Assembly (NCBI GenBank): GCA_964016885.1 | Contig: OZ024743.1 | Coordinates: 261,268,001 to 261,332,000 of the forward strand | Source of the DNA: Eledone cirrhosa | Taxonomy: Eukaryota | Reading direction: 5' to 3' | Length of the DNA: 64,000 nt | Shown: piece by piece, positions 9,501-63,750 of the stretch | Layout of the letters: every line of letters begins with the position of its first letter | How positions within the stretch are numbered: the stretch's first letter is position 1 | The notes under the pieces: generated by a model | Told to the model about the DNA's origin: nothing | The model's input: only the letters and a program-made list of their open reading frames with translations | The model's database searches: none | Position numbers and translations under genes: made by a program

Positions 9501-12500
9501 CCACTACTACTGCTATCAACACTACTACTACTACTACTATCAACACCACTACTACTACTATCAACACCACTACTACTACTATCAACACCACTACTACTAC
9601 TATCAACACCACTACTACTATCAACACCACTACTACTACTATCAACACCACTACTACTACTATCAACACTACTACTACTACTATCAACACTACTACTACT
9701 ACTATCAACACTACTACTACTACTATCAACACCACTACTACTACTATCAACACCACTACTACTATCAACGCCACTACTACTACTATCAACACCACTACTA
9801 CTACTATCAACACCACTACTACTACTATCAACACCCCTACTACTACTATCAACACCACTACTACTACTACTACTACTATCAACACCACTACTACTATCAA
9901 CACCATTACTACTACTATCAACGCCACTACTACTACTATCAACGCCACAACTACTACTATCAACACCACTACTACTATCAACGCCACTACTACTACTATC
10001 AACACCACTACTACTACTATCAACACTGCTACTACTACTATCAACACTACTACTACTACTATCAACACTACTACTATCAACACCACTACTACTACTATCA
10101 ACACCACTACTACTATCAACGCCACTACTACTACTATCAACACCACTACTACTATCAACACCACTACTACTATCAACACCACTACTACTACTATCAACAC
10201 CACTACTACTACTATCAACACTGCTACTACTACTATCAAGACCACAACTACTACTATCAACACCACAACTACTACTATCAACACCACTACTACTACTATT
10301 CACACCACTACTACTACTATCAACACCACTACTACTACTATCAACACCACTACTACTACTACTATCAACACCACTACTACTACTATTCACACCACTACTA
10401 CTACTATTCACACCACTACTACTACTATCAACACCACTACTACTACTATTCACACCACTACTACTACTATTCACACCACTACTACTACTATCAACACCAC
10501 TACTACTACTATTCACACCATTACTACTACTATCATCACCACTACTACTACTATTCACACCACCACTACTACTATTACTATCAACACTACTACTACTACT
10601 ATCAACACCACTACTACTACTATCAACACCACTATTACTACTATCAACACTACTACTACTACTATCAACACCACTACTACTACTATCAACACCACTATTA
10701 CTACTATCAACACCACTACTACTACTATCAACACCACTACTACTACTATCAACACCACTACTACTACTATCAACACCACTACTACTACTATCAACACCAC
10801 AACTACTACTATCAACACCACAACTACTACCATCAACACTACTACTACTACTATCAACACCACTACTACTATCAACACCACTACTACTACTATCAACACC
10901 ACTACTACTACTATCAACACCACTACTACTACTATCAACACCACTACTACTACTATCAACACCACTACTACTACTATCAACACCACAACTACTACTATCA
11001 ACACCACAACTACTACTATCAACACCACTACTACTACTACTATCAACACCACTACTACTACTATCAACACCACTACTACTACTATCAACACCACTACTAC
11101 TACTATCAACACCACTACTACTACTATCAACACCACAACTACTACTATCAATACCACTACTACTACTATCAACACCACAACTACTACTATCAACACCACA
11201 ACTACTACTATCAACACCACTACTACTACTATCAACACCACTACTACTACTATCAACACCACTACTACTACTATCAACACCACTACTACTACTATCAACA
11301 CCACTACTACTACTATCAACACCACTACTACTACTATCAACACCATTACTACTACTATCAACACTACTACTACTACTACTACTATCAACACCACAACTAC
11401 TACTATCAACACCACAACTACTACTATCAACACCACTACTACTACTATCAACACCACTACTACTACTATCAACACCACTACTACTACTATCAACACCACT
11501 ACTACTACTATCAACAACACTACTACTACTATCAACACCACTACTACTACTATCAACACCACTACTACTACTATCAACACCACAACTACTACTATCAACA
11601 CCACTACTACTAGTATCAACACCACTACTACTACTATCAACACCATTACTACTACTATCAACACCACTACTACTACTATCAACACCACTACTACTACTAT
11701 CAACACCACTACTACTACTACTATCAACACCACTACTACTACTATCAACACCACTACTACTACTATCAACACCACTACTACTACTACTATCAACACCACT
11801 ACTACTACTATCAACACCACTACTACTACTATCAACACCACTACTACTACTACTACTATCAACACTACTACTACTACTACTATCAGCACCATTACTACTA
11901 TCAACACCACTACTACTACTATTCACACCACTACTACTACTACTATCAACACCACTACTACTACTATCAACACCACTACTACTACTATCAACACCACTAC
12001 TACTACTATCAACACTACTACTACTACTATCAACACCACTACTACTACTACTATCAACACCACTACTACTAGTATCAACACCATTACTACTACTATCAAC
12101 ACTACTACTACTACTATCAACACCACTACTACTACTATCAACACTACTACTACTACTATCAACACCACTACTACTACTACTATCAACACCATTACTACTA
12201 CTATCAACACCACTACTACTACTATCAACACCACTACTACTACTATCAACACTACTACTACTACTACTACTATCAACACCACTACTACTACTATCAACAC
12301 CACTACTACTACTATCAACACCACTACTACTACTATCAACACCACAACTACTACTATCAACACCACTACTACTACTATCAACACCACTACTACTACTATC
12401 AACACCATTACTACTACTATCAACACTACTACTACTATCAACACCACTACTACTACTAACAACACCACTACTACTACTATGAACACCACTACTACTACTA

Positions 12501-15500
12501 TCAACACCACTACTACTACTATTCACACTACTACTACTACTATTCACACCACTACTACTACTATCAACACCACTACTACTACTATCAACACCACTACTAC
12601 TACTATCAACACCACAACTACTACTATCAACACCACTACTACTACTATCAACACCACTACTACTACTATCAACACTACTACTACTACTATCAACACCACA
12701 ACTACTACTATCAACACCACTACTACTACTATTCACACCACTACTACTACTATCAACACCACTACTACTACTATCAACACCACTACTACTACTATTCACA
12801 CTACTACTACTACTATTCACACCACTACTACTACTATCAACACCACTACTACTACTATCAACACCACTACTACTACTATCAACACCACAACTACTACTAT
12901 CAACACCACTACTACTACTATCAACACCACTACTACTACTATCAACACTACTACTACTACTATCAACACCACAACTACTACTATCAACACCACTACTACT
13001 ACTATTCACACCACAACTACTACTATCAACACCACTACTACTACTATCAACACCACTACTACTACTATCAACACCACTACTACTACTATCAAAACTACTA
13101 CTACTATCAACACCACTACAAATACTACTATCAACACCACTACTACTACTAACAACACCACTACTACTACTATGAACACCACTACTATTACTATCAACAC
13201 CACTACTACTACTATTCACACTACTACTACTACTATTCACACCACTACTACTACTATCAACACCACTACTACTACTATCAACACCACTACTACTACTATC
13301 AACACCACTACTACTACTATCAACGCCACAACTACTACTATCAACACCACTACTACTACTATCAACACCACTACTACTACTATCAACACCATTACTACTA
13401 CTATCAACACCACTACTACTACTATCAACACCACTACTACTACTATCAACACCATTACTACTACTATCAACACCACTACTACTACTATCAACACCATTAC
13501 TACTACTATCAACACCACTACTACTACTATCAACACCACTACTACTACTATCAACACCACTACTAGTACTATCAACACCACTACTACTACTATCAACACC
13601 ACTACTACTACTATCAACACCACAACTACTACTACTATCAACACTACTACTACTACTATCAACACCATTACTACTACTATCAACAACATTACTACTACTA
13701 TCAACACCACTACTACTACTATCAACACCATTACTACTACTATCAACACCATTACTACTACTATCAACACCACTACTACTACTATCAACACCATTACTAC
13801 TACTATCAACACCACTACTAGTACTATCAACACCACAACTACTACTATCAACACCACTACTACTACTATCAACACTACTACTACTACTATCAACACCACT
13901 ACTACTACTATCAACACCACTACTACTACTATCAACACCACTACAACTACTATCAACACCACTACAACTACTACTATCAACACCACTACTACTACTATCA
14001 ACACCACTACTACTACTATCAACACCACTACTACTACTATCAACACCATTACTACTACTATCAACACCAATACTACTACTATCAACACCACTACTACTAC
14101 TATCAACACCACTACTACTACTATCAACACCACTACTACTACTATCAACACCACCACTACTACTATCAACACCACTACTACTACTATCAACACCACTACT
14201 ACTACTATCAACACCATTACTACTACTGTCAACACCACTACTACTACTATCAACACCAATACTACTACTATCAACACCACTACTACTACTATCAACACCA
14301 CAACTACTACTATCAACACCACTACTACTACTATCAACACCACTACTACTACTATCAACACCACTACTACTACTATCAACACCACTACTACTACTATTCA
14401 CACCACTACTACTACTATTCACACTACTACTACTATTATTCACACCACTACTACTACTATCAACACCACTACTACTACTATCAACACCACTACTACTACT
14501 ATCAACACCACTACTACTACTATCAACACTACTACTACTACTGTCAACACCACTACTACTACTATCAACACCACTACTACTACTATCAACACTACTACTA
14601 CTACTATCAACACCACTACTACTACTATTCACACCACTACTACTACTATTCACACTACTACTACTATTATTCACACCACTACTACTACTATCAACACCAC
14701 TACTACTACTATCAACACCACTACTACTACTATCAACACCACTACTACTACTATCAACACCACTACTACTACTATCAACACCATTACTACTACTATCAAC
14801 ACCACTACTACTACTATCAACACCACTACTACTACTATCAACACCACTACTACTACTATCAACACCACTACTACTACTATCAACACTACTACTACTACTG
14901 TCAACACCACTACTACTACTATCAACACCACTACTACTACTATAAACACTACTACTACTACTATCAACACCACTACTACTACTATTCACACCACTACTAC
15001 TACTATTCACACTACTACTACTATTATTCACACCACTACTACTACTATCAACACCACTACTACTACTATCAACACCACTACAACTACTATCAACACCACT
15101 ACTACTACTATCAACACCACTACTACTACTATCAACACCACTACAACTACTACTATCAACACCACTACTACTACTATCAACACCACTACTACTACTATCA
15201 ACACCACTACTACTACTATCAACACCATTACTACTACTATCAACACTACTACTACTACTATCAACACCACTACTACTACTATCAACACCATTACTACTAC
15301 TATCAACACCACTACTACTACTATCAAAACCACTACAACTACTACTATCAACACCACTACTACTACTATCAACACCACTACTACTACTATCAACACCACC
15401 ACTACTACTATCAACACTACTACTACTACTATCAACACCACTACTACTACTATCAACACCACTACTAGTACTATCAACACCACTACTACTACTATCAACA

Positions 15501-18500
15501 CCACTACTACTACTATCAACACCACTACTACTACTATCAACACCACCACTACTACTATCAACACTACTACTACTACTATCAACACCACTACTACTACTAT
15601 CAACACCACTACTACTATCAACACCATTACTACTACTATCAACACCACTACTACTACTATCAACACCACTACTACTACTATCAACACCATTACTACTACT
15701 ATCAACACTACTACTACTACTACTATCAACACCACTACTACTACTATCAACACTACTACTACTACTATCAACACTACTACTACTACTATCAACACCACTA
15801 CTACTACTATCAACACCACTACTACTACTATCAACACCACTACTACTACTATCAACACCACTACTACTACTATCAACACCACTACTACTACTATCAACAC
15901 CACTACTACAAACTATCAACACCACTACTACTACTATCAACACCACACTACTACTATCAACACCACTACTACTACTATCAACACTACTACTACTACTACT
16001 ACTACTATCAACACCACTACTACTATCAACACCATTACTACTACTATCAACACTACTACTACTACTACTACTATCAACACCACTACTACAAACTATCAAC
16101 ACCACTACTACTACTATTCACACCACCACTACTACTATCAACACCACTACTACTACTACTATCAACACCACTACTACTACTATCAACACCACAACTACTA
16201 CTATCAACACCAATACTACTACTATCAACACCACTACTACTACTATCAACACCACTACTACTACTATCAACACCACTACTACTACTATCAACACCACTAC
16301 TACTACTATCAACAACAACTACTACTACTATCAACACCACTACTACTACTATCAACACCACTACTACTACTATCAACACCACTACTACTACTATCAACAC
16401 CACTACTACTACTATCAACACCACTACTACTACTATCAACACCACTACTACTACTATCAACACCACTACTACGACTATCAACACCACTACTACTACTATC
16501 AACACCACTACTACTACTATCAACACCACTACTACTACTATCAACACCACTACTACTACTATCAACACCACTACTACTACTATCAACACCACTACTACTA
16601 CTATCAACACTACTACTACTACTACTATCAACACCACTACTACTACTATCAACACCACTACTACTACTATCAACACCACTACTACTACTATCAACGCCAC
16701 AACTACTACTATCAACACCACTACTACTACTATCAACACCACTACTACTACTATCAACACCACTACTACTACTATCAACACCACTACTACTACTATCAAC
16801 ACCACTACTACTACTATCAACACCACTACTACTACTATCAACACTACTACTACTACTATCAACACCACTACTTCTACTATCAACACCACAACTACTACTA
16901 TCAACACCACTACTACTACTATCAACACTACTACTACTACTATCAACACCACTACTACTACTATTCACACCACTACAACTACTACTATCAACACCACTAC
17001 TACTACTATCAAGACCACTACTACTACTATCAACACCACTACTAGTACTATCAACACCACTACTACTACTATCAACACCACTACTACTACTATCAACACC
17101 ACTACTACTACTATCAACACCACAACTACTACTATCAACACCACAACTACTACTATCAACACCACTACTACTACTATTCACACCACTACAACTACTACTA
17201 TCAACACCACTACTACTACTATCAACACTACTACTACTACTATCAACACCACTACTACTACTATCAACACCACTACTACTACTATCAACACCACTACTAC
17301 TACTATCAACACCACTACTACTACTATCAACACTACTACTACTACTATCAACACCACTACTACTACTATCAACACCACAACTACTACTATCAACAGCACT
17401 ACTACTACTATTCACACCACCACTACTACTATCAACACCACTACTACTACTATCAACACCACCACTACTACTACTATCAACACCACTACTACTACTATCA
17501 ACACCACTACTACTACTATCAACACTACTACTACTACTACTATCAACACCACTACTACTACTATCAACACCACTACTACTACTATCAACACTACTACTAC
17601 TACTACTATCAACACCACAACTACTACTATCAACACCACTACTACTACTATCAACACCACTACTACTACTATCAACACCACTACTACTACTATCAACACT
17701 ACTACTACTACTATCAACACCACAACTACTACTATCAACACCACTACTACTACTATCAACACTACTACTACTACTATCAACACCACTACTACTACTATTC
17801 ACACCACTACAACTACTACTATCAACACCACTACTACTACTATCAAGACCACTACTACTACTATCAACACTACTACTACTACTATCAACACCACTACTAC
17901 TACTATCAACACCACTACTACTACTACTATCAACACCACTACTACTACTATTCACACCACTACAACTACTACTATCAACACCACTACTACTACTATCAAG
18001 ACCACTACTACTACTATCAACACTACTACTACTACTATCAACACCACTACTACTACTATCAACACCACTACTACTACTACTATCAACACCACTACAACTA
18101 CTACTATCAGGACCACTACTACTACTATCAACACCACTACAACTACTACTATCAACACCACTACTACTACTATCAACACCACTACTACTACTATCAACAC
18201 CACTACTACTACTACTATCAACACCACTACTACTACTATCAACACCACTACTACTAGTATCAACACCACAACTACTACTATCAACACCACTACTACTACT
18301 ATCAACACCACTACTACTACTATCAACACCACTACTACTACTATCAACACCACTACTACTACTATCAACACCACTACTACTACTATCAACACTACTACTA
18401 CTACTATCAACACCACTACTACTACTACTATCAACACCACTACTACTAGTATCAACACCATTACTACTACTATCAACACTACTACTACTACTATCAACAC

Positions 18501-20905
18501 CACTACTACTACTATCAACACTACTACTACTACTATCAACACCACTACTACTACTACTATCAACACCATTACTACTACTATCAACACCACTACTACTACT
18601 ATCAACACCACTACTACTACTATCAACACTACTACTACTACTACTACTACTATCAACACCACTACTACTACTATCAACACCACTACTACTACTATCAACA
18701 CCACTACTACTACTATCAACACCACAACTACTACTATCAACACCACTACTACTACTATCAACACCACTACTACTACTATCAACACCATTACTACTAGTAT
18801 CAACACCACTACTACTACTATTAACGCCACAACTACTACTATCAACACCACTACTACTACTATCAACACCACTACTACTACTATCAACACTACTACTACT
18901 ACTACTATCAACACCACAACTACTACTATCAACACCACTACTACTACTATCAACACCACTACTACTACTATCAACACCACTACTACTACTATCAACACTA
19001 CTACTACTACTACTATCAACACCACTACTACTACTATCAACACCACTACTACTACTATCAACACCACTACTACTACTATCAACACTACTACTACTACTAT
19101 CAACACCACTACTACTACTATCAACACAACTACTACTACTATCAACACTACTACTACTACTATCAACACCACTACTACTACTATCAACACTACTACTACT
19201 ACTACTATCAACACTACTACTACTACTACTATCAACACCACAACTACTACTATCAACACCACTACTACTACTATCAACACCACTACTACTACTATCAACA
19301 CCACTACTACTACTATCAACACCACTACTACTACTATCAACACTACTACTACTACTATCAACACCACTACTACTACTATTCACACCACTACAACTACTAC
19401 TATCAACACCACTACTACTACTATCAACACCACTACTACTACTATCAACACCACTACTACTACTATTCACACCACTACAACTACTACTATCAACACCACT
19501 ACTACTACTATCAAGACCACTACTACTACTATCAACACTACTACTACTACTACTACTATCAACACTACTACTACTACTATCAACACCACTACAACTACTA
19601 CTATCAACACCACTACTACTACTATCAACACCACAACTACTACTATCAACACCACTACAACTACTACTATCAACACCACTACTACTACTATCAACACCAC
19701 AACTACTACTATCAACACCACTACAACTACTACTATCAACACCACAACTACTACTATCAACACCACTACAACTACTACTATCAACACCACTACTACTACT
19801 ATCAACACTACTACTACTACTACTATCAACACCACTACTACTACTATCAACACCACTACTACTACTATCAACACCACTACTACTACTATCAACACCATTA
19901 CTACTACTATCAACACCACAACTACTACTATCAACACCACTACTACTACTATCAACACTACTACTACTACTATTCACACCACTACTACTACTATCAACAC
20001 CACTACTACTACTACTATCAACACCACTACAACTACTACTATCAACACCACTACTACTACTATCAACACCACTACTACTACTATCAACACCATTACTACT
20101 ACTATCAACACCACCACTACTACTATCAACACCACTACTACTACTATCAACACTACTACTACTACTACTATCAAGACCACAACTACTACTATCAACACCA
20201 TTACTACTACTATCAACACTACTACTACTACTATCAACACCACAACTACTACTATCAACACCACTACTACTACTATTCACACCACTACTACTACTATCAA
20301 CACCACTACTACTACTATCAAGACCACTACTACTACTATCAACACTACTACTACTACTACTACTATCAACACCACTACTATTACTATCAACACTACTACT
20401 ACTACTATCAACACTACTACTACTACTATCAACGCCACAACTACTACTATCAACACCACTACTATTACTATCAACACTACTACTACTACTATCAACACCA
20501 TTACTACTACTATCAACACCACCACTACTACTATCAACACCACTACTATTTCTATCAACACTACTACTACTACTACTATTCACACCACTACTATTACTAT
20601 CAATACCACTACTACTACTATCAACACCACTACTATTACTATCAACACTACTACTACTACTACTATTCACACCACTACTACTACTATCAACACTACTACT
20701 ATTACTATCAACACTACTACTACTACTACTATTCACACCACTACTATTACTATCAACATCACCACTACTACTATCAACACCACTACTATTACTATCAACA
20801 CTACTACTACTACTCACACCACTACTACTACTATCAACACCACTACTACTATTACTATCAACACCATTACTACTATTACTATCAACACCATTACTACTAC
20901 TATAA
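6580..20905. repeat. Intronic ~14.3-kb minisatellite, 18-bp unit ATCAACACCACTACTACT
   Basis: Directly visible. Units vary by the number of ACT triplets and by point variants (ATTCAC, ACA, ATT, GCC). It lies between exons 6496-6565 and 21768-21811. Confidence 0.97.
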
Positions 20906-21767
20906 TCATCAGTGATTATATGTCCCTTTTTTTCCATGCTTGCATAGTTAAACAAGATTTTTTTTGTTGGCAGGTTTTTTCTATGACTAGATACCTGTAC
21001 TTTATTCTACGTATGATATATAACAGGTATTAAAATACAGCTGTGGTATATGACTGGTATTAGAATACAGATATGATATCTGTCAGATATTTCTTATGAA
21101 ACACTCTACCTATGCATTTCAATTAATTTTGAAAATAACCAAACATTTTGAGATCTTTAATAAAATATCTAAATTTTTCTTTAGTAAACTCATCTTTAGA
21201 ACATAAAGATAAATATTTTAATTGGAGCAGTTTTATATCATAAATCCAAAGTAGTTCCAGGCAGTGTGGTATCAAAAAGGGGTTCATCTTCCTGATTAAA
21301 TTATTTCCTCAATAATATTTAAACTACAGATTTAGATCACTGTAGCCAGTCAAGACAATAATACCATTTCACAGATTAGGATAAGAAACAAAAACAAGTC
21401 TGAGGAAACTAGTTTTCGACTGTTTTAAGGCCATTTTCCCTGTGAAAGCAGAGGTTATCTTTGCAGGCCTATGGTTTCATATTGATCATGAAGTGTGTGT
21501 GTGTGTGTTTTTAAGGCAATATTTTACAGCAGGATACCCTTTGTAGCCTATCCATCTAGTTATTTCTTATGCAGGAATATGGTGTACCTAGTTTGGGGCT
21601 GTGTAAAAAAATTAGGAATAAAAATTCTTTAAAAAGTTTTGGTCTTTGTTAAAATAAAACTTTGTTCAGCTACTGTGAGAATAGACTAGTGCTGAAATGG
21701 TTCTTACATCAAATTATTTCTTCATGTACAACAGTTGAGAGTGAATATATTTCTTGTATGATTTCAG

Positions 21768-21811: not shown

Positions 21812-22277
21812 GTAATGTATATAATTTTCTCAACTTCTTTAATATTTTAAGAATGATTTAGAGCACAATGTATGTAGAAAATATAGAAAGAAAATCACAG
21901 TGTGTCATGCAAATGTTTCATGGTCCCAGCAGACAAAATGACAAATATGTTGGCTGAAGAATTGCAAATGGGGCATGCTAAAAGAACTAATCTAACTCAC
22001 AGTGGATGTTCTTTCATATCACCAGCTCCATCCTAATTATAATGTATAGGGAAGCAATTCAAGGTCCCAAGACACCAGATGTTTCCAATACTGTGTGTTT
22101 GACAAGAAGCCTATCAGAGACCATCAGGTACTTTGTTAGCTTGTAGTCTTCAGACTATCAGGTGACAAAACCTGGGTCTAGTACCATTTAACTGCTGCAG
22201 AAAGTATTGTTGCTGCTCACAAATATAAATATATTTATTCTTAGAAAATGTAGAAATATATATATATGTATATATAT

Positions 22278-22608
22278 CATTTCATTTTACGTCCACTTTT
22301 TCCCTGCTTGCAAGGGTGGGACGGGAACTGATTCTGGCTTGATTTCTACAGCTGGATACCCTTCCTAATACCAACCTCATTTACAGTGAGTGCTTGGTGC
22401 TTTTTTGCTGTGGCACCTGCATGACCACTTTGCAGTGGAATGATAGGGAACCCAGTCCCTATCATCTCATTTCTACAGCTGAGTAAACTGGAGCAATGTG
22501 AAATAAAGTGTCTTGCTCAAGGAAACAACACATCACCCGGTCTGAGAATTGAACTCACAACCTTTCGATTGCAAGGCCAATGCTCTAACCACTAAGCCAT
22601 GTGCCTCC
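22278..22608 (-). mobile_element. Full-length tRNA-CORE SINE with RTE-derived tail
   Basis: Closely matches the reverse complement of 32234-32562. Has A box TGGCTTAGTGG, B box GAGTTCAATTC and CORE-like ccttgagcaagacacttta. Flanked by TA runs. Confidence 0.85.
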
Positions 22609-22757
22609 ATATATATTTAAAGGGTAAACAAGGTTCAATGAATAAATCAAAGAATGAGTTTTACAATAGATTGGAAGCACTCAACAGCAATGGTTTTCCT
22701 GAGTTATTAATATTAATTCAAAATATTAACAAAAATAGACATTCGTGTGATCAAGTA

Positions 22758-22824
22758 TATTTTATTATACATATTTCAGAGGTACTGAGCTATCTTCAAC
22801 AGTACGTCCTCATCAGATAAAATA
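22758..22824 (-). ncRNA. Type I hammerhead ribozyme (mirror copy)
   Basis: Reverse-complement copy of 22920-22986 in the left palindrome arm. Confidence 0.8.
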
Positions 22825-22919
22825 AGATGATGCATGACATACCCTGACTTAGTAGATGGTTAAGATTCAGTCGTGGTATCTTAACCATCTACTAAGTCAG
22901 GGTATGTCATGCAGCATCT

Positions 22920-22986
22920 TATTTTATCTGATGAGGACGTACTGTTGAAGATAGCTCAGTACCTCTGAAATATGTATAATAAAATA
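22920..22986 (+). ncRNA. Type I hammerhead ribozyme
   Basis: tattttat-CTGATGA-ggacgtactg[12-nt loop]cagtacctct-GAAA-tatgta-TA-ataaaata. Stem I is 8 bp, stem II is 9/10 pairs, stem III is minimal. Confidence 0.8.
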
Positions 22987-23159
22987 TACTTGATCACACG
23001 AATGTCTATTTTTGTTAATATTTTGAATTAATATATATATATATCTACATTTTCTAAGAATAAATATATTTATATTTGTGAGCAGCAACAATACTTTCTG
23101 CAGCAGTTAAATGGTACCAGACCCAGGTTTTGTCACACCGATGTGTGTGTGTGTGTGAT

Positions 23160-23400
23160 GTGCAATGAGGATGACTGCTGAGTAAAGAAGTGCCAAGAAA
23201 TGCCAGTAGAAGGAAGACGCAGTAGAGGAAGACCACGAAAAACATGGGTAGAGGTTGTGAGAGCAGACCTCAGATCGCTGAAGATCACGGAGGAGATGAC
23301 GAAGGACTGTGACAAGTGGAAAGATGCTGTGCTGAATAGAACCCATTCCACCCTTGCAAGCAGGGAAAAGCGGACGTAAAATGATGATGATGATGATGAT
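23160..23400 (+). mobile_element. RTE-clade LINE 3' end
   Basis: Translates VKKCQEMPVEGRRSRGRPRKTWVEVVRADLRSLKITEEMTKDCDKWKDAV, the typical RTE C-terminus, followed by a (GAT)n tail. Confidence 0.8.
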
Positions 23401-23875
23401 ATAAATATGGATTGAGGGTGAGGCTGTGTGGTTACTGATAACGAGTGTCACCTTATCTTCTAACACTATATGTGGAAATCTTTTATGGTGAGTTTCTGCA
23501 AGGAAAAAGACCACAGCATAGGCCTAAGAAAAAGTACTAAGATTGTATTAAGGAAAATGTGAAATATCTGGGTTTTGATATAGATCAATAGTAAAAGCAA
23601 GCTATTGATCATAATATACAGAAAAAGACAATTAAATCACTTGTATGTTTACCATAATGGCAGGGAATCAGATGGAGGCCAGTTAGTGTTGAAAATGGTT
23701 AGATCAATTGTACTGCAAAACTCCTAGAACCTTGATCTCTTTTCATTCCTTATACCATATCCATAACCTTGATTTACACTCGTGACCATCAAGGTGTTGA
23801 CTTTTAATTATACTCTGTTAACGTTTTTTTATTATAAATGACTAAATCTGTTTATTTTTTATTCTAATCCTTCAG

Positions 23876-23990
23876 ATCTCCAATATTAGTACTCCAATGA
23901 ATGTACAACACCATTGTCATGCCACAGATGCAGATAGTGCTGAGAAAATACTAAACAGTCTAATGACTAACCAATTCCAAACTACGGGAG
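23876..23990 (+). CDS. SYNJ1: Synaptojanin-like gene exon with CRIB-like motif
   Basis: ccttcag| acceptor and GAG|GTTGGT donor, phase 0 to 1. Encodes ISNISTPMNVQHHCHATDADSAEKILNSLMTNQFQTTG. Confidence 0.65.
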
Positions 23991-24179
23991 GTTGGTATAG
24001 GCTCTTTTTTCAGTTTCATTGTCGTTGCTGTTATTCCTTTATTTTTTTAATTGGAGTAAAGAATCTTCAAATAACATTTGTTCTTCATCCCAATGAAGAA
24101 AAAAGTCGGGATTGTTACACAAAGAGGAAATTGTCCCTTGTCATTGTTTTGGCTCTTTCATGACCATATAAAGCTATAA

Positions 24180-24425
24180 TCTCAATGAAAAAACATACAG
24201 TCCACCTTGTAGGTGGTCATACTAGTACAAAAATGAAAAAGCACCCAGTCCATGCTGTAATCTGGTTGGCATTAGGAAGAGCATCCAGCTGTAGCAACCA
24301 AGCTAGAAACAGATCTGTATGAGCAAGACATGGTTACCTGCCCTGGCTAGTCTCATTACATGACAGCTCATCAAACTCATGCAAGCATAGAATATAGAAG
24401 TTAAACGATGATGATGATGATTATT
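24180..24425 (+). mobile_element. SINE 3' part with (GAT)n tail
   Basis: ggttggcattaggaagagcatccagctgtag...gttaaacgatgatgatg, as in the other copies. Confidence 0.6.
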
Positions 24426-25441
24426 ATGTTGATTAGCTGCCTCAGCATATACTTGGGGTTTGGATCTTTACTCATTTCTCAAGCATAAAATATGGGGCTG
24501 GCTTATATTCAAGTATATACAGTAATTAATGAAGACTTTTCTGTGAATTTACTAATACTATTAATTAGCTCATTATTAATTACTTGGTTCGTATATAAAA
24601 TTATTTTGGGAGATTTTAATCTAAATAGAAACCCTTTAAATTGGGTAGTTTAATTTCATAAAACCAGCACTGATTTTGGGTTGATATCAAAAGGGTTGAA
24701 TTCCCTAATCTGGAAACTTTTAAGCAGCAAACCTTTTTAAGTCTTTCTGTGGTCTTTGCTGATGAGGTATAAGACCAGACATATCTTGAGTTGTCCCCAT
24801 AACTATCAAAAATCGGGCTCACTCCCCCTTTGTATGTCTCCATTTAATTTTTTATCAAAGCAGAATTATTAACACTAATGTTTGTTTTTTTTTCTCAATA
24901 CAAATATAATTTCAATTGATCAAACATTTTTTTGGATTCAGTACATTAGATATGGTAACCTAGAACTCAATTTTCAACATTCCAAAACACCTAGTGAGCA
25001 CCCATCAGCACAGGATTTTTATCTATTGTAATTACTGTTTCGATTACAATAAAATATTTACCAGAATATGCTAGGAGTTATGTTAAATGATTGCATCATA
25101 TCCTCCTTTAGCAAACCAGCTGTTGTACCTAGAAGGAAGAAGTGATTGTTTAAACCTTTCATTACCATATTTCTAATGAAAGACACATTTTCAAAATGAA
25201 TTGAAAATAATCAAGAATTTAGAGTAATTTAGTAATATAATTAACTTTCTGATCATTTATCTGGTTCTTGAAGCATTACATCACAAAGGTTTGTTCTTAC
25301 CCAGAATTATGATGGAAGGTTTCTAGATCAACATAAACAAACAATTTAAAATAAATTGTTTAGTATGAAATGGGTTAATTAATTTAAAAATTATTATACA
25401 TAATTATGTAATTCAAGAAATGTTACTAACTTACTATACAG

Positions 25442-25574
25442 CAGGGGTTCCCAACCATTATGTTGAAATACCTTCTTAATACTCAAAATCCTACATCACC
25501 CACCAAAATTTCCCCTATTTTCTGTTCAGTTGCTCATCCCCCAACAGTGATATCGCCCAGGTTGGGAAACCCTG
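25442..25574. mobile_element. hAT-type MITE
   Basis: 15-bp TIRs CAGGGGTTCCCAACC / GGTTGGGAAACCCTG and an 8-bp TSD ctatacag / ctgtacag (7/8 match). Confidence 0.8.
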
Positions 25575-25648
25575 CTGTACAGCATGTATGATTTAATTTA
25601 ATTCATTTAATTTGTATATTCTCTATTTCTGTTCATTTGTTTCCCTAG

Positions 25649-26256
25649 GAGCTACAGCAACTCAGAACAGTATATCCCGTAGTCAGACAACTGGCTGTTT
25701 ACAAGCTTATAACATTCCCGAAAATAAAACGGATACAAATCGTCCTTACAGTGCTAGTGTTGAAAATCTATCACTGACGTCATCAACCAATCTGAAAGAA
25801 AATAAAACCAATGACATGTTTCAAAAGATGGCTCTTAATTCTTCTATTAACACAGCTCCAGAATCAGCAATATCTCAGAACTCATCAACTAATCTGATGG
25901 ATACTATGGTTCCAAAAGTCGTTCCAAGTCCATCAACTAGTGTAAACGCAAGCTTTCCAACCCCACCTCCAGTTCCGGTTCGCAGGGATTTAACTGTGAA
26001 TAAACCCAGCCAATCTTCAAGTGTTCTACAAAATACCAACAGCAATGCCAAAACTTCCTCAGATGATTTCAAAACCTGTCCTTTGCAACCCCCCCCACCA
26101 TTACCAACAACAACTTTGAATCCAATCACAGTTTCTGAAGTAAAGGTTCAGAAAGTAAAATCAGACCCTCCCCCAATTCCTTCTCGACCTCCAGCCTCAT
26201 TACCCCCAGTTCCAGCAAGACCTCAGCCCCCTCCACCTGTACCACCACGCCCTTAA
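25649..26256 (+). CDS. SYNJ1: Synaptojanin-like gene terminal coding exon
   Basis: ccctag| acceptor, phase 1. Long Ser/Thr/Pro-rich frame ending PPIPSRPPASLPPVPARPQPPPPVPPRP-TAA. Confidence 0.75.
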
Positions 26257-26316
26257 TAATAAAACATTAGTGGTTAGAAACAGATTGCTTGTTGTACATG
26301 CATGTGTGGTGTGTGC

Positions 26317-26366
<50 letters not shown>

Positions 26367-26605
26367 CATTCACATACATAAATCCACACACACACATGTG
26401 CTTGCATAGATATGTATTTCTATAGAGAGATATATACGTATATATACATACACATACATAAATTCACACACGTGTGCTTGCATATATATGTATATATTTA
26501 TACATATATAATTGGCTAAAAGGTATAATATACAAAAATTAAAAAAATACACAAAGAAAGAGGTAGCAACATCTCTATTGTTTTATGTTTACAATGTTCA
26601 CATTT

Positions 26606-26772
26606 AAACCATTCATATCCAAAACCATTCATATCGTTAAATATTCATTTATATAGTAAACCATTTATATAGTAAACCATTTATATAGTAAAACATTTAT
26701 ATAGTTAAACATTTATATCACATACCATTTATATAGTAAACCAGTCATATCGTAAACATTTATATAGTAAAA
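26606..26772. repeat. 16-bp tandem repeat AAACCATTTATATAGT (degenerate)
   Basis: About 10 imperfect units downstream of the stop codon. Confidence 0.8.
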
Positions 26773-26941
26773 CTAAATTCACACTTGTATCAGTTCATAA
26801 AATCAGTTAAATTAACCAGAAGCTAATGTAGTATCCCAAAATTCGTAGCTAAGTCTGGATAATTCTTTCATGGAAATGACTCTAAAAACATCTGTAGAAT
26901 CATAATGATGTGGTTTGAGTTTGTGTATATTTTTACTTTGT

Positions 26942-27270
26942 GAAGGTACATGGCTTAAGGATTAGAGTGTTTCACTCATGATCCTAAGGTTGTGAGTGTG
27001 ATTCGAGGTGGCACGTTATGTCCTTCAGCTAGACACTTTATTTTACGTTGCTCCAGTCAACACAGCTGGTAAAAAATTAGTTATACCTGTAATTGAAAAG
27101 GGCCAGCTTTGTCACACACTCTGTCATGCTGATAGTCCCTGAGAATTACATTAAGTTTACACGTGTCTGTGGAATGCTCAAGCACTTGCATGTTAATTTC
27201 ATGAATAGGCTGTTCCAATGGTTGAATCAGTTTGGAACACTCAGCGCTGCAACTGATAGAGGTCCAACAC
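26942..27270 (+). mobile_element. Diverged tRNA-CORE SINE
   Basis: Head catggcttaaggattagag...aaggttgtgag and CORE-like agacactttattttacgttgctccagt, similar to 32234. Confidence 0.6.
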
Positions 27271-28363
27271 ATACACACATACACACATACACACACACAT
27301 ACACATAATTGTTTTCTTTTGTTAAAATTTTAGGTGGGTACCATTGTTAATGGAATCGATTTTGATCCATTGTTGTTTGATTAATGTGAGAATGATTATG
27401 CACACAAACTCATATATATATTTTTTTTTAATAAAAATAAATTTTTATTTGTTATAAACAATTTATTCATATATTTCTGTAGTGTTTTAATGACAATTAT
27501 GATAATGAGGAAGGAAAGAGTGAGGAAAATTTTAACTATGACAAAGTAAAATAGATTTATTCTATAATTTCCTAAATACATTAGTGAATGAATGGTGAAA
27601 ACATGCAGAGTCAATGCTACTATGAAGTCCAACTAGGTGACCACACGAGATGCAGGCCTCAGTGAGGCACATTACTGAATCTTAAAGAATCACAGTTTTA
27701 TACAATTTTGTATAATTAAGTTAAATAATGTTATGGCCTGTCCTGTGATTTGACATAGACGAGTGTAGACTATGTAGTTGAAAATGCAGGCTTAGTCATT
27801 TTTTTAGTGTGGTCAGAGCAAGAAATATCAAAAACTGGGTTTGTCATCTTACCAAACTGAAAGCTGAAACTATTTTATTTGGGAGAGTGAGGCACATAAC
27901 TGGGAGAAAGGGTTAACAGCCTGCCTAGAATACTAAATACCCAGGCACACATAGAACTAACCTAGGATGCTAAATTCCCAGGCACACATTGTAGAGCTAG
28001 TCTATGTGTCTAAATACCCAGGTGCCAATCCAGCCAATGAGTTCTTTATTGTAGAATTACATACTGAATTTCTAGGCACCAACACAGTTTGATTTTGCTC
28101 TTTTGTTTCCATATTCCCCATTAAATATCACTAATAACTTCTATTTTTTTATAACTTCACCAGAAAATTTGGATCAACTTGAATAGTAAATATAAATTTG
28201 AACTTTGGACTTGATTATAAATAATATTCAAGTTTCAAGTATCACCATATATATATATATATATAAGGTGTGTGCACATGTGCATATATATATTCATATG
28301 TGTCTTCTATATATAAAGTAGGTGTTTATATGCATTATATTATTATATATACATATATATATA

Positions 28364-28809
28364 GAATAAGGAAAAGTGAAGTAGTTTCAGATGTTCAAGT
28401 TTTTTAATAATAATGCTGTGATATATATATCAATGGCGACAGTGGCCACACTGTTCCGTGCGCCAGTGTCGCGACATCATCAGACAGCTTGTTATGTTTC
28501 CGAGGCAATCCAAATTGAATCGACATGGGAACGGACGAAGTGTGTGCTCTTGGGTTCTTCATCCATCCCCCTTGGATTGCCTCGGAAACATAACCTTATT
28601 ATGTAACAACCTGTCTGACGATGTCGCGACACTGGCGCACGGAACAGTGTGGCCACTGTCGCCATTAAATTTATATCACAGCATTATTATTAAAAGACTT
28701 GAACATCTGAAACTACTTCGCTTTTCCTTATTCAATATTTACTCCGTCACTCCTATGTGGAATAAGTACATTGAGTGCTTGAATTGAATTGCATCAATGT
28801 TTACCCTAA

Positions 28810-28811
<2 letters not shown>
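28364..28811 (+). mobile_element. Fold-back Penelope-like terminal module with degenerate hammerhead and 3' tail
   Basis: Inverted arms 28364-28513 and 28572-28733. Contains CTGA(C/T)GA...GGAA-cagtg-tggc-cactg-TC. The tail has TTGAGTGCTT (28771) and TGTTTACCCT (28798), then (TA)n. Confidence 0.65.
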
Positions 28812-29520: not shown

Positions 29521-32144
29521 TTTTGGGGGTGGGGGGCACATGAATACCCCCCCCCCCCCCCCCCGGAACATCTGTACACAAAACGTTTTCACCCAATCAA
29601 TCATTATTGTCCATTTTCATTACATGTCAGTACTAGTGCAGCCACACTTTCTGTACACTTCAGCTGACATTTTTAAGGCCCAGCTGATCTCTCAATACAC
29701 ATGTGCTCAGCTTATGCAGGTGAATATTACATATCCAACCTTAAAAATTTCCTTTGATGGAGCTTACCTGTGTAACGGAACTATCAACTATCAATTTACA
29801 TCTAGTGAGCTGCTTGGACAGTTCATAAATGTTATTTCATGAGTGCTTCTACTGCTAACTTCTCTGAACTTTTAATTCTGTCAGCCTGTTCAAGATCTCA
29901 TTGTATCTGTTATGTGTCTATTTATTGCTTCAATTTAGTACACACTTCCTACCTACTTCCTTACTACATATCAACCAAAACCACTTCCATTGTGGCATTG
30001 AAATATTGTTTCTTTTACTAATCAATATTTTGATATTTACCATGTTTAAACTTTGGATTCTAGATTTGGATCTTTTTATGCAATTCTTTGATGGGTTCTG
30101 CCATGAAACTCAGGTTGTTAACATGCCAAATTATCTAATGATAACAAATCCTTAACTCTTATTCAATAACCCCAAGGAGGACTATAAAGAATAGTTGGAG
30201 CCTTTGGACATAGCTTTGGTGGATACCTGTTTATACATTAAATTTCTTGCTAACAGTTATACCTATGTACGTGACCAGCATGGCTCTCACGAGCCATTTC
30301 TCTACTGCTTGCTTGATTACTTCCCAGCAAAGTGTGGGACTTTATCAAAGCCTTGCTCACCAATGATGTAGAGTAGCTAATAGCTTAACCTCTCTTGCAA
30401 TTATCTCAATAGAAATATAGTATCTGTGGTTTGGTTCCATGTCCTGGCACAAACTCAAACTGCGATAAAACTCCTTTATCTACTATCAACATTTTGTCCA
30501 CCAGACCTCTATAATTCACCCTCTCCAGTGCGACTTCTTTGCCTTTATAGCAGTTGCTGCTGATAGTAGTAGACTTGAAATTAGAAATCTGAATATACCA
30601 AATCTATTATCATTAATATTCAGTTTGCTTCAGAATGGTTGAGGAGTGCTAACATATGATCACAGGACATCACACCTTGTCTTCACAGTACTGATATGAA
30701 AAGTGTTGAGCTTCTTAACACTGTTGGTATCACTAGTCATTACAATGCATCCTGTGCTTCATAGTTATATGGTTGTGATTTTACAACTCATGTCCTTCCT
30801 ACTGTCAGCAGATAGTAGAGTAGACTAAGTATGTTTATTGAACCCCAGACCGGACAGTAGTATGGCTGTCATGTCCTCCCTATATTAGTTTTAATTTGGT
30901 GTGGTTGTTCTCTTAGATTGATTGCCTTCACTGGAGCTTATGGAGTTATGGCTCTCCAGAGCATGAAGATAGAACACATTTTTACACTTATAGGTTTTTT
31001 CAGAGAGCCCAACTTACTAAATTGGTCAATTTCACCATAGTCCCTCCCCAAAAAAGACATCCTGTATCTTCTAGCTGGTGAATCATTGAAGTTGAGAGAA
31101 AGAGAGCGGGTGAGTAAATCTTATATCAAATGTATATAAACAATAAAGAAACATAAACTGTGAAATACAATCAGGTTTATCTGTTTGACTTCAGCTTAGC
31201 ATTGACATTTAATCTTCATAATGATCTGTCCACTACTAAAGATACTGTAAACATTTGAATTAGCAATTCCATTTTTAGATATCTTCTGCTAAATCATTAC
31301 AGGATGCTAATAGTTAATGTTTTCAAACAATATTGAAACATTTTTACATCCTTTTAGGATATTTCTTATGGCCTTTTCAAGAGATATTTCTTTCCAACAT
31401 TTTAGGAAGTTGAATTGAAACAGTAATGCAACTAAACCATGAAATCTCATAATAAAAGTAAAGTTTAATCATTTTCTCAATTTTCTGATTTGCTTCAATG
31501 ATCATTTTTTTCCTCCAAAAATATGAAATTATGAAACAGTTCAACCAATGAGAATGAAAGAAATTATGAGATTTTTTAAAACTTCAGCTTATTCTCAGGT
31601 AGCATTCTTACAATCTTGAACTCGGGTTGATACAAGGATTTCAAATGAAGTGTTAACATCACATTTTGAAGGGCTGTTTATAGAGTGGAGGGGGTGATTA
31701 TATGTCAATTGTTATTGGCAAATTGTTGTTTGATATTAAAAAATTGTTAACTTCTCTTCTTTTTAAATTTAAATGTATTATATAGGTCATGGAATACCAT
31801 GAAGTTTCTTTGGGAATTTTTGCTGACTTTTCATGAAACATACATAAAACATTATGTGTTTAACTGCATATTATATATATATATATATGGATTTAAAACA
31901 GTAATATATATATATATATGATTATAAACGAAGATGGCGAGTGAAATTTGAAAACTGAATTAGCTTTTGCTGTATTTTTTAACACAAAAAAACAGTATCA
32001 GCAAACATATGCTGTTTTTTTTTCTCCATTCCATTCAGGAGGCTTATTTGCCCTGCTATTAGATTATTTTTTGTAGTCAAAATATACAACTATTTAGGCC
32101 ATTACTCAACAGGGTACTCAATACTTGGGGTAGTAGAGTATGGT

Positions 32145-32224
32145 TATATTATAAAGATCTCTTGCTGTTTCAACAGCTAGTTCCAGTTTGGAACTAGCTG
32201 TTGAACCCGACTCTTTATAATATA
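32145..32224. repeat. Short fold-back palindrome
   Basis: Perfect 17-bp arms 32169-32185 / 32189-32205 plus outer 13-bp arms. Confidence 0.85.
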
Positions 32225-32233
32225 TATATATAT

Positions 32234-32562
32234 GGAGGCACATGGCTTAGTGGTTAGAGCATTGGCCTTGCAATCGAAAGGTTGTGAGTTCAATTCTCAG
32301 ACCGGGTGATGTGTTGTTTCCTTGAGCAAGACACTTTATTTCACATTGCTCCAGTTTACTCAACTGTAGAAATGAGATGATAGGACTGGGGTCCATATCA
32401 TTCCACTGCAAAGTGGTCATGGAGGTACCACAGCAAAAAAGCACCCAGTACTCACTGTAAATGAGGTTGGTGTTAGGAAGGGCATCCAGCTGTAGAAATC
32501 AAGCCAGAATCAGCCCCCGTCCCACCCTTGCAAGCAGGGAAAAGCGGACGTAAAATGAAATG
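32234..32562 (+). mobile_element. Full-length tRNA-CORE SINE with RTE-derived tail
   Basis: A/B boxes and a CORE-like segment. The tail ccacccttgcaagcagggaaaagcggacgtaaaatga is identical to the RTE end near 23348-23384. Confidence 0.85.
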
Positions 32563-32575
32563 TATATATATATAT

Positions 32576-32667
32576 ATAATCAAGAATAAGGTAATATGTT
32601 GGAATCTTACATCATGATGTAATTAATAAAATGTAAAGTTCCAACATATTGCCTTATTCTTGATTAT
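32576..32667. repeat. Fold-back palindrome (37-bp arms) followed by TTGAGTGCTT tail
   Basis: Arms 32576-32612 / 32631-32667; motif at 32732-32741. Confidence 0.8.
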
Positions 32668-32825
32668 TATACTAAAACTCCATCATACATAAACTTTTGT
32701 GATCACATCACAGTCTGGAATGTATATCATGTTGAGTGCTTAATCCTGTGTATACAAGTAATAGTTAATCAGCACATACAACTGAGAAACAATAACAGAT
32801 TGATGAACATAAACGGACCAGTACA

Positions 32826-33210
32826 CGTACATACATATATGTATACAGACGTACAGTAGTATGTATATATATATATATATACATACATGCACACATATAT
32901 ATATGTACGTATGGATTCACCGAACATTTATTATAATGCTCGGTGTGTTTGTAAACAAACATCCCGTATTAAGCCGTAGTGTCCAGCAACCATCGTTGCT
33001 CATTTGTTCAACACTGCCTTTGTCAGTGTTGAACAAACAAGCAACGATGGTTGCTGGACACTACAGCTTAATACGGGATGTTTGTTTACAAACACACCGA
33101 GCATTATAATAAATGTTCGGTGAATCCATACGTACATATATATATATGTGTGCATGTATGTATATATATATACATACTACTGTACGTCTGTATACATATA
33201 TGTATGTACG
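32826..33210. repeat. Long fold-back palindrome (~190-bp arms, 7-nt loop)
   Basis: Arms 32826-33016 / 33024-33210, near-perfect. Confidence 0.9.
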
Positions 33211-33319
33211 TATACATACTTATATTTAAGTAACAGCCGTACTAAGAGTGGGAAATCAAATTTCGTTTCATTTTTTCCGTTTATATATATATATATATTG
33301 AAAAGGTTTGAAGCAATGA

Positions 33320-33752
33320 ATATTCGTAAAATTGGAGTATTCTCAGTGCAAAAGGTAGCCGTAAATAGCTGGATGCTATTTGCAAAGTAAAAATTTAGGG
33401 GTTTAAGATATAACCACAAATCAAATGGAGAATGGGAGAAGGAGAAAGAGAGTCTAAAGTATGAGAGTGTTATAGAGCGAGAGAAGGGAGGAGAGGAGAA
33501 AGATGGGGATGAAAACGATGGAGCAGAACTTAAGGAGAAAGACAAGTCCTGCTCCATCGTTTTCGTCCCCATTTTTCTCCTCTCCTCTTGCCTTCTCTCT
33601 CTCATCTCATACTTTAGACTCTCTTTCTTCCCTCTCCCATTCTCCATTCAATTTGTGGTTATATCTTAACCCCAAAATCTTTTACTATACAAATAAAATC
33701 CAGCTGTTTACAGCTACCTTTTGCACTGAGAATACTCCAATTTTACGAATAT
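33320..33752. repeat. Long imperfect fold-back palindrome (~210-bp arms)
   Basis: Arms 33320-33531 / 33544-33752 with a purine-rich/pyrimidine-rich core; more mismatches than the neighbouring palindrome. Confidence 0.9.
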
Positions 33753-40358: not shown

Positions 40359-40720
40359 ATAAAATATATAAAAAAATAATGAATAAAACAATGAAACAGT
40401 TCCTTATATTAAACAAAAAAAGTTCATTGTTTAACGATCGTTTCTAGGATATATATGTGTTAGAATTGGCATGCATATTCAACAGATCTATGTATATCCT
40501 AGAAACGATCGTTAAATAATGAACTTTTTTTGTTTAATATAAGGAACTGTTTCATTGTTTTATTCATTATTTTTTTAATATTTTATCTTGACTCTGTATT
40601 CCGTTTATCTTTCACCGAAAGAGATTTTTCATTGCATCTCTTCTTTCCATGATATCCGGATTACATTGAGTTCTTCATACGGATTGCACACTACCGTAAA
40701 CTCTTGGTAGATTTATCTAC
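40359..40720 (+). mobile_element. Fold-back module with 3' half of a hammerhead and tail
   Basis: Arms ~40359-40454 / 40492-40586; GAAA-CGATCG-TT at 40502-40513; TTGAGTTCTT at 40666; flanked by (TA)n. Confidence 0.65.
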
Positions 40721-62923: not shown

Positions 62924-63750
62924 ATAACTTTGAAAGGTTTCGGCCAGTATTGGCCCAGGCCATGTCTAACTTAATAGCACCACCTGGCGAAGTCTTACAA
63001 ATCAGTGTTTGGGCACCATGGCCCACTCGAGCAGAGAGTTATTGTTCACGGAGGCATATCCGGGTGTAGGAGGCTTATCCAGGATTTCTTGAAGGAATTT
63101 ATCCAACGAACTCTTGAACTTGATGGGGTCTGTCTCTGCTTTGATGTGTTTTGGTGTAATGTTAAAGAGTGCAGGGCCAATTGAGGTGAAATAATTGTGC
63201 CGTATTGTTATGTGATGCGAGTGGGATTTTTGTCACGGGCAGATAGCACGGGGCCCAAGCCTTGGTTGTACACTAAAGGTGATGCCAACATCATTTGGGC
63301 TAAGCTGATGGAATATTTTCCACATCATACAAGTAATGTATCGCTCACGGCGACGTTGAAGAGAATAAAGCCTGTCATGCCAACTATCTTTTTTGTAATT
63401 GACCTTTGGGGTGCTTCAACTTCCATGATACTTTGTTTCGTGTGGGGTGACCACAGTGGACAACAGTATTCAAGGTGGGGTCGGGCAAAAGTGGAGAAGA
63501 GAAGGACAACAGTGTGAATATCTCTCAACTGGAAAGTTCTGAGAATCCAGGAACACATTCTGTGGACCATATCAACTTTGCTGTTTATATGAGTGGCCCA
63601 GCTTATTTTGTTGTCCACAATTACTCCCAGGTGTCTGATGTTATTGGAAGCCACTAGAGTTTCACCCGAAGGAAGAGAGTATGGTAGTTTCAGGGCATCC
63701 TTTTTTCCAAAGTGGATTAGTTCAAATTTATCCTCATTCAAATTTAGCAC
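62924..63750 (-). mobile_element. CR1-group LINE 3' portion (end of RT, thumb, C-terminus, 3' UTR)
   Basis: LNEDKFELIHFG...IRHLGVIVDNKISWATHI...RPHLEYCCPLWSPH...QRSIT; downstream frames are broken. Confidence 0.85.

Follow-up and report, generated by a model that had tools for sequence, protein, structure and literature searches.

A predicted U-bulge hairpin beside the copy ends of Hydra-clade Penelope-like elements as a candidate signal for reverse transcription

The window analysed here is a 64,000-nt stretch of AT-rich animal DNA (27% GC, with long TA tracts) from Eledone cirrhosa (contig OZ024743.1, positions 261,268,001 to 261,332,000). Judged by their sequence, its repeat modules are 3′ ends of Penelope-like retroelements (PLEs) inserted in (TA)n, beside a Hydra-clade endonuclease fragment. 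The word TTGAGT in these modules is predicted to be one strand of a bulged hairpin of the form RCUC, stem-loop, UN bulge, GAGY. We consider it probable that TTGAGT is the 3′ strand of this U-bulge hairpin, which lies downstream of the hammerhead ribozyme and usually occurs as one of two copies, and that the hairpin, bound by the element's own protein, directs reverse transcription to begin a few bases upstream. Across Hydra-clade loci the hairpin is conserved and covarying, it stands in two copies before the start codon, and copies end 0–7 nt upstream of either one; protein binding to the hairpin and initiation there would be the simplest reading of these data.

A sequence-only reading of the window had named nine occurrences of the word as a shared tail signature before the TA junction, and all are found where it placed them (28771, 32732, 40666 and 62814 on the plus strand; 22684, 32121, 56527, 57536 and 62171 on the minus strand), as is TGTTTACCCT at 22621–22630 (minus) and 28798–28807 (plus), i.e., in two modules. 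TTGAGT occurs at 23 sites in the whole window and is not enriched overall: the 50,332 unique bases hold 21 occurrences on both strands, where 20.7 would be expected; at such a background frequency, only its position can matter. It lies in six of eight protruding arms, which were defined by fold-back geometry alone, without use of the motif, and comprise seven fold-backs between 22.7 and 40.6 kb and the hammerhead copy at 62.6–62.9 kb. Among 2000 dinucleotide shuffles, five had some 6-mer shared by six arms. The word is absent from the arms at 33.2 and 33.3 kb (fold-backs 32913–33127 and 33324–33748). As a tail signature it is borne out in part, by its enrichment in arms; its distance to the microsatellite is not uniform and varies from 25 to 201 nt. 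The further claim of a hammerhead upstream on the same strand holds in part: the ribozyme is complete for 22684 and 62814 and core-mutated for 28771, only a long-stem candidate accompanies 56527, only a GAAAC half accompanies 40666 and 32121, and none is present for 32732 or 62171. Counted by module, a hammerhead near the 3′ end, with predicted cleavage, is complete in two of the seven motif modules, mutated, half or candidate in four and absent from one. The complete copies are:

22758–22824, minus strand: minimal type I hammerhead, stem I 8, stem II 3, stem III 3; predicted cut at 22766
22920–22986, plus strand: the same hammerhead on the short arm
62729–62781, plus strand: a further minimal type I hammerhead, recognised by reading the sequence, with its predicted cut near 62775

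The last lies in the copy inverted against the endonuclease fragment, outside the matches of the strict hammerhead descriptor, and is not the minimum-free-energy (MFE) fold. Among the listed matches of an Rfam scan of the window (150 of 714), microRNA (miRNA)-model matches on TA repeats dominate and no hammerhead is present. Another hammerhead at 61334–61404 (plus) has the stem I/III layout seen at 22928 with a different stem II, and ends in TA without a tail. Three other leads were set aside: G[GT]TTACC as a shared tail word (four of seven tails) was within chance, since 260 of 1000 shuffles gave at least 4; a mechanical list of TA junctions was too noisy (5 of 21 words at 41 junctions against 1.5 expected); and a degenerate 5′ splice-site reading of TTGAGT was abandoned once the pairing partner emerged.

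That partner is ACTC. It is found within 80 nt upstream of TTGAGT at six of the nine named sites and at three of the 14 others (background 0.22), and in the MFE folds all six ACTC copies pair with GAGT, the z-scores ranging from 0.13 to −3.66. The predicted hairpins, and one word excluded from the element, are:

22677–22704, minus strand: bulged ACTC/GAGT hairpin, imperfect (3-nt bulge), holding the 22684 word; the MFE fold pairs its arms, with a weak z of 0.13
28749–28778, plus strand: bulged hairpin, imperfect (internal loop), holding the 28771 word; z −1.84; the tail ends at 28810
32114–32139, minus strand: canonical hairpin with a 4-bp inner stem and UU bulge; z −2.6; covariance-model rank 2, E 1.9
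32677–32739, plus strand: canonical hairpin with a long inner stem-loop; z −0.79
40591–40673, plus strand: canonical hairpin with a long inner stem-loop; z −3.66
62801–62821, plus strand: canonical short hairpin with UU bulge, holding the 62814 word; covariance-model rank 1, E 0.35; the tail ends at 62862, in a very high-copy family
62162–62171, minus strand: TTGAGT word with neither partner nor hammerhead, probably chance

The word at 62171 thus drops out as a signal site; those at 57029 and 57279, absent from the earlier list, equally lack partner and hammerhead, and all three look like chance occurrences. A strict descriptor of the hairpin gives four matches in the window, all at named sites (shuffle mean 0.125), and a covariance model built from nine external hairpins ranks 62791–62825 and 32110–32148 first in the window. 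The window hairpins read ACUC/GAGU and the external ones GCUC/GAGCAC, i.e., both strands changed, and the window form may be a compensatory version of the same hairpin. The alternative that the window word reflects chance or shared ancestry and has nothing to do with the GAGCAC hairpin found in other Hydra elements would fit the background frequency of the 6-mer and the non-significant model scores, but the arm and partner counts given above, the same end rule in the window and tails that are otherwise barely alignable make it most improbable. The candidate cis-signal put forward in the sequence-only reading is partly upheld, as a conserved signal downstream of the hammerhead, backed by independent loci, and recast as a base-paired hairpin rather than a linear word, with no fixed place before its own copy's TA junction; its recognition by reverse transcriptase (RT) is what we infer. 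A variant hairpin near 33215–33250 was rejected, as folding gave no support. The two fold-backs that lack the word, at 32913–33127 and 33324–33748, have one-sided extensions with no clear hairpin, and their short arms stop 6 nt before ACTT and 5 nt before GCTT.

The Hydra-clade coding remnant of the window is:

62332–62611, minus strand: 5′-truncated C-terminal GIY-YIG endonuclease fragment of Hydra-clade type (CxxC..E..N..CxH)

For the 94-residue frame at 62332–62613 (minus), 2356 relatives reach an E of 0.001 or lower, and among the best 150 of these CxxC..E is found in 147 and N..CxH in 125; its long relatives carry an RT followed by a C-terminal GIY-YIG domain, with DKT. The fragment is 43% identical to one full Hydra open reading frame (ORF) and has CxxC and CxH flanking E and N; in the window the domain is truncated where CCHH would appear. 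RWK, DKT and CxCX5C motifs are present in external full Hydra ORFs, and the window fragment is without RT or linker. Because the relatives carry a C-terminal rather than an N-terminal endonuclease, they fall outside the Naiad/Chlamys class, which also lacks a canonical hammerhead; five 8-mers of the motif occur in the Naiad/Chlamys consensi, mostly inside ORFs. Pfam names neither the window fragment nor three full ORFs and matches GIY-YIG in 2 of 10 relatives, a word-index protein search returned no match, and no relative was found in the viral contigs searched. A structure model of one Hydra ORF (predicted local distance difference test, pLDDT, 90) has telomerase RTs as its best structural matches, with no PLE entry among the matches listed, and Arg-rich stretches are conserved in Hydra ORFs, in the RxRW region at the N-terminus and in the linker that precedes WFNPP. 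In contigs, the ORF is cut at 62611, and the 62727–62841 part is covered far more deeply than the ORF fragment and therefore represents a very abundant non-coding family; a 62247/62731 joint is found in 49 reads from 2 starts, its orientation being ambiguous. Contigs in bacterial genome bins (L082–L098) carry Hydra elements of animal type, grouped within TA tracts that they share, and are probably host contamination.

The window contains seven fold-backs between 22.7 and 40.6 kb and a further inverted copy at 62612–62862, in which a 5′-truncated copy, an adjoining inverted copy and a one-sided tail recur, and module ends adjoin TA tracts. The available parts of Craig et al. 2021 (PMC8557442) describe truncated copy, inverted partner and one-sided tail as standard PLE anatomy, and give the Hydra clade the same features as here: a C-terminal GIY-YIG domain with CxxC and CxH, (TA)n insertion and a hammerhead near the 3′ end. 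They differ in that the hairpin pair and the end rule are not mentioned there, in tail length (about 55–70 nt here and 30–40 there), and in the ACUC/GAGU form and mostly non-coding nature of the window families.

The conservation of the hairpin was assessed in 79 external Hydra loci, taken from the best 80 of 486 confirmed stretches and forming 60 clusters at 80% identity. The rule, RCTC-stem-loop-TT-GAGY, was set down before these loci were examined, and a locus counted as informative when it had sufficient sequence and no early TA junction. A hammerhead is present in 46 of the 79. Of the 26 informative loci, 20 (18 of 23 families) have a GCUC/GAGCAC hairpin no more than 110 nt from the hammerhead cut, compared with a mean of 0.58 and a maximum of 3 in shuffles and with 5 of 100 ORF tiles; since the hairpin arms are self-complementary, 4 of 26 also count on the reverse strand. 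The first bulge base, a position left free in the search pattern, is U in all 57 distinct external hairpins, and the second is variable (U 38, C 10, A 9). The pair closing the 2-nt bulge is formed in 56 of 57 and covaries (C-G 34, U-A 21), other registers giving 1, 1, 8 and 21; for inner pairs 1 to 4, family-aware partner shuffles with one hairpin per family gave counts of 0, 0, 8 and 358 in 2000. Because MAFFT failed on the 5′ arm across loop lengths, equal-length subsets of 9 and 10 of the 57 rows were used, and the unfitted nine-row alignment is 98% paired, with none of 500 shuffles equalling it; a 96-row alignment agrees with the pairing, but was fitted to the model. Since the last letters of the pattern had been refined on the first 79 loci, 19 further loci, some from families already in that set, served as a hold-out. 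Rfam returned only weak miRNA matches on the 79 loci, in 10 of them, and no curated family for the hairpin was matched there or among the 150 of 714 window matches listed. In the new Hydra consensi published in PMC8557442, as far as available, the hairpin is seen by eye in three of six, a variant in one, and it is absent from the 3′ end of two.

Twenty-nine ORF starts have at least 100 nt of upstream sequence. Their 5′ untranslated regions (UTRs) contain at least one hairpin in 27 cases and two in 19 (15 of 21 families); the two are spaced about 55–83 nt apart, and the last, hairpin 2, begins 34–79 nt before the ATG. Near the end of Hydra-1_Amil, TTGAGTAG was considered as a motif and rejected; by eye, its counterpart in L072 lies upstream of hairpin 1. 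To map copy ends, terminating copies were set against relatives that run on past the same point. The ends lie 0–7 nt upstream of hairpin 1, in copies without a tail, or of hairpin 2, in tailed ones, for 10 of 12 in the first set (six families) and for 22 of 30 over all 98 loci, including 17 of 19 for which the reference is at least 90% identical and 12 of 16 in hold-out loci, compared with a rough uniform expectation, by our own arithmetic, of about 0.14 per copy end. As copies end just upstream of a hairpin, the hairpin within a tail is the first of the pair and the end is set beside the second; the hairpin-to-(TA)n distance is 51–69 nt in 16 of 18, similar to the spacing of the pair. Window copies stop before ACTC in a like manner:

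22617–22713, minus strand: tail, i.e., the arm protruding past the fold-back and ending in (TA)n
22714–23030: fold-back of two 5′-truncated copies; the short (plus) arm stops 5 nt before ACTC
28364–28733: fold-back with core-mutated hammerhead remnants (28613 plus, 28483 minus); the short arm stops 7 nt short of an ACTC at 28741, or 15 nt short of the predicted partner (28749)
32169–32205: fold-back; the short arm stops 5 nt before hairpin 32114–32139
32578–32665: fold-back; the short arm stops 9 nt before hairpin 32677–32739
40362–40583: fold-back; the short arm stops about 4 nt before hairpin 40591–40673
56466–57563, minus strand: non-coding partial tandem with a unit of about 1009 bp; the word at 56527 and 57536 has an imperfect partner

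The tail of the 56.5-kb copy ends at 56466; in the copy that continues, an ACTC lies 3 nt further on and the second hairpin is imperfect. In the 62.8-kb family, where ACTC stands at 62801, tandem joints fall at 62791–62798 and one contig passes into (TA)n at 62795.

These end positions can be explained in other ways. A role within the 5′ UTR, where the hairpins would control translation or packaging and ends would fall nearby only because a UA-rich upstream stretch anneals to the (TA)n primer, gains from the closeness of hairpin 2 to the ATG and from a TA dinucleotide at −9 to −2 in 55 of 57 hairpins (TATA or ATAT in 31 of 57). However, ends cluster no further than 7 nt from each hairpin although AT-richness extends over the entire region, and the hairpin is kept in the non-coding, very high-copy window families; we hold this role to be highly unlikely. 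Hardly more convincing is a processing signal, by which RNA 3′ ends would arise immediately upstream of the hairpin, through a nuclease or a transcription stop, and reverse transcription would start there. It would account for the same end positions, and the available parts of a study of another PLE (PMC11167929) report that RNA-seq read ends coincide with its start sites, but in vitro that PLE starts internally on unprocessed RNA and needs downstream RNA. The last alternative places recognition on DNA: the GIY-YIG endonuclease would recognise an interrupted inverted repeat in the pseudo-long terminal repeat (pLTR), nick just upstream, build partial tandems and so fix the ends. Tandem joints at the same site favour it, as does the D. 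virilis Penelope endonuclease, whose recognition and cutting of plasmids depended on the tail sequence (as related in the part of PMC11167929 available), but the one-sided bulge, the G-U pairs and the covarying inner stems of variable length suit a single strand, and ends occur at the same distance in unrelated (TA)n tracts whose target has no hairpin. We regard it as unlikely.

Several observations weigh against RNA recognition at the hairpin. Of the 30 mapped ends, 8 lie 13–92 nt off a hairpin, cross-family pairs and a fold-back among them; the end test kept only pairs whose reference has a hairpin ahead, the ends are not independent, as one family supplies many, and TA microhomology blurs ends and shortens distances. 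The strict descriptor is passed by only 4 of 10 informative hold-out tails (shuffle mean 0.013), the failures being one variant, one tail cut by a fold-back and four tails without the hairpin, and the 10-row alignment gives no significant covariation (45 of 500 shuffles). In the window, the top covariance-model sites reach only E 0.35 and 1.9, which is not significant; the ACUC/GAGU form is unseen in the 57 external hairpins, three of which had ACUC with GAGC, a mismatch; a clean second hairpin is seen in no window family, with no clear one past 62862 among the contig and read matches listed; and the tail at 32121 extends 201 nt. Moreover, only one window module adjoins the Hydra ORF fragment, and the joint possibly linking the two is the orientation-ambiguous one.

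If the hairpin does act as an RNA signal, the RT-endonuclease would bind it, possibly via an arginine in the bulge, and nick (TA)n, and the nicked TA end would act as primer at the UA-rich sequence immediately 5′ of the hairpin. A start at hairpin 1 would give a copy without a tail, a start at hairpin 2 a copy with a tail carrying hairpin 1, and a fold-back with one short and one tailed arm would arise from one start at each site; one start per hairpin would therefore explain the optional Penelope tail. The bulge shares its layout with the arginine-sandwich motifs of the HIV (human immunodeficiency virus) TAR RNA and of 7SK (ASM3): a paired purine, a bulged U, then G, A-U pairs and G, matching A22/U23/G26/A27-U38/G28 of TAR and the two-base U40-U41 bulge of 7SK (PMC6189040, in the part available). 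The definition given there asks for a pyrimidine bulged next to a Watson-Crick pair, with G and A-U pairs following; the first bulge U and the closing pair, in 57 and 56 of the 57 external hairpins, fit this layout. A U.A-U triple and arginine intercalation would complete the motif, the arginine contact being predicted by analogy; the loop, however, closes on the opposite side of the bulge, and the likeness is one of sequence layout.

A precedent for two starts exists in the only purified PLE, the Poseidon element of Anolis (PAc; Frangieh et al. 2024, PMC11167929). As given in the available parts of that study, reverse transcription by PAc begins internally at two tail-bounding sites downstream of the hammerhead, and RNA on the 3′ side is required, up to 172 nt into the ORF, though the first starts are at 111–118; a binding motif is only hypothesised. 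PAc belongs to another clade and starts in an AC-rich stem-loop inside the ORF, and the GAGC hairpin is absent from the stretch in its Fig. S1, to which the comparison is limited. Non-long terminal repeat (non-LTR) retrozymes are likewise short non-coding hammerhead repeats, thought to be moved by PLEs, and the literature on them names no cis-signal for RT in the parts available (PMC7229834; bioRxiv 10.64898/2026.07.22.740005). The window copies differ from them as dispersed fold-backs with tails rather than tandem arrays. Retrozyme-like head-to-tail joints of about 77 nt do exist for the 62.8-kb family in contigs and reads (62715–62798); they outline a hammerhead monomer of retrozyme size whose end is the first site.

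The literature searches turned up no account of either the hairpin or the end rule, although Repbase reports, older Penelope papers or preprint supplements could mention one, nor is the hairpin described in the available parts of PMC8557442, PMC11167929, PMC4209133, PMC6189040, PMC8969392, PMC7229834, PMC13282606 and bioRxiv 10.64898/2026.07.22.740005. The element class is known; the hairpin is apparently an undescribed cis-acting structure.

Several other features surround the modules. A 92-bp flank at 22162–22253 and 23045–23136 forms an inverted repeat (99%) on either side of a module made of a short interspersed element (SINE) and a fold-back, as if host DNA had been duplicated in inverted form at insertion. 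A 359-bp SINE-like composite occurs twice (22261–22619 and 32223–32578, 95%), both times in (TA)n beside a Hydra-type module. Within the 1-kb non-coding unit, internal repeats at 56957–57098 and 57209–57354 (78%) each carry an unpaired TTGAGTTCTT on the minus strand. Further away are a 14-kb tandem array of short ACT/CA-rich units (6580–20911), apparently intronic to a gene with a proline-rich last exon (about 25650–26256), a fragment resembling the RT of a long interspersed element (LINE) at 63328–63750 (minus), and two related decayed frames near the window start (301–708 and 1427–1945, plus).

PLE RTs are the closest retroelement relatives of telomerase, and their RNA recognition and optional tail are the question addressed here. 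In telomerase RNA, a stem next to the template fixes the copying boundary. The modelled Hydra ORF has a fold like that of TERT, the reverse transcriptase of telomerase, and the Hydra stem, which lies 3′ of the copied region, would set the start; the likeness drawn is a conceptual one. Whether tandem TAR-like U-bulge hairpins form an address for a telomerase-like RT, each setting one start, such that any RNA with the 20–30-nt hairpin could be written into (TA)n, we judge evenly balanced; the last part is suggested by the very high-copy non-coding families of the window. A short covarying hairpin at a fixed distance from both ends opens the way to direct mutagenesis and structural work, and may serve as a marker for non-autonomous Hydra families in repeat-rich invertebrate genomes. 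If the proposal is true, the hairpin would be a compact template signal for an RT-endonuclease of about 700 residues that targets (TA)n.

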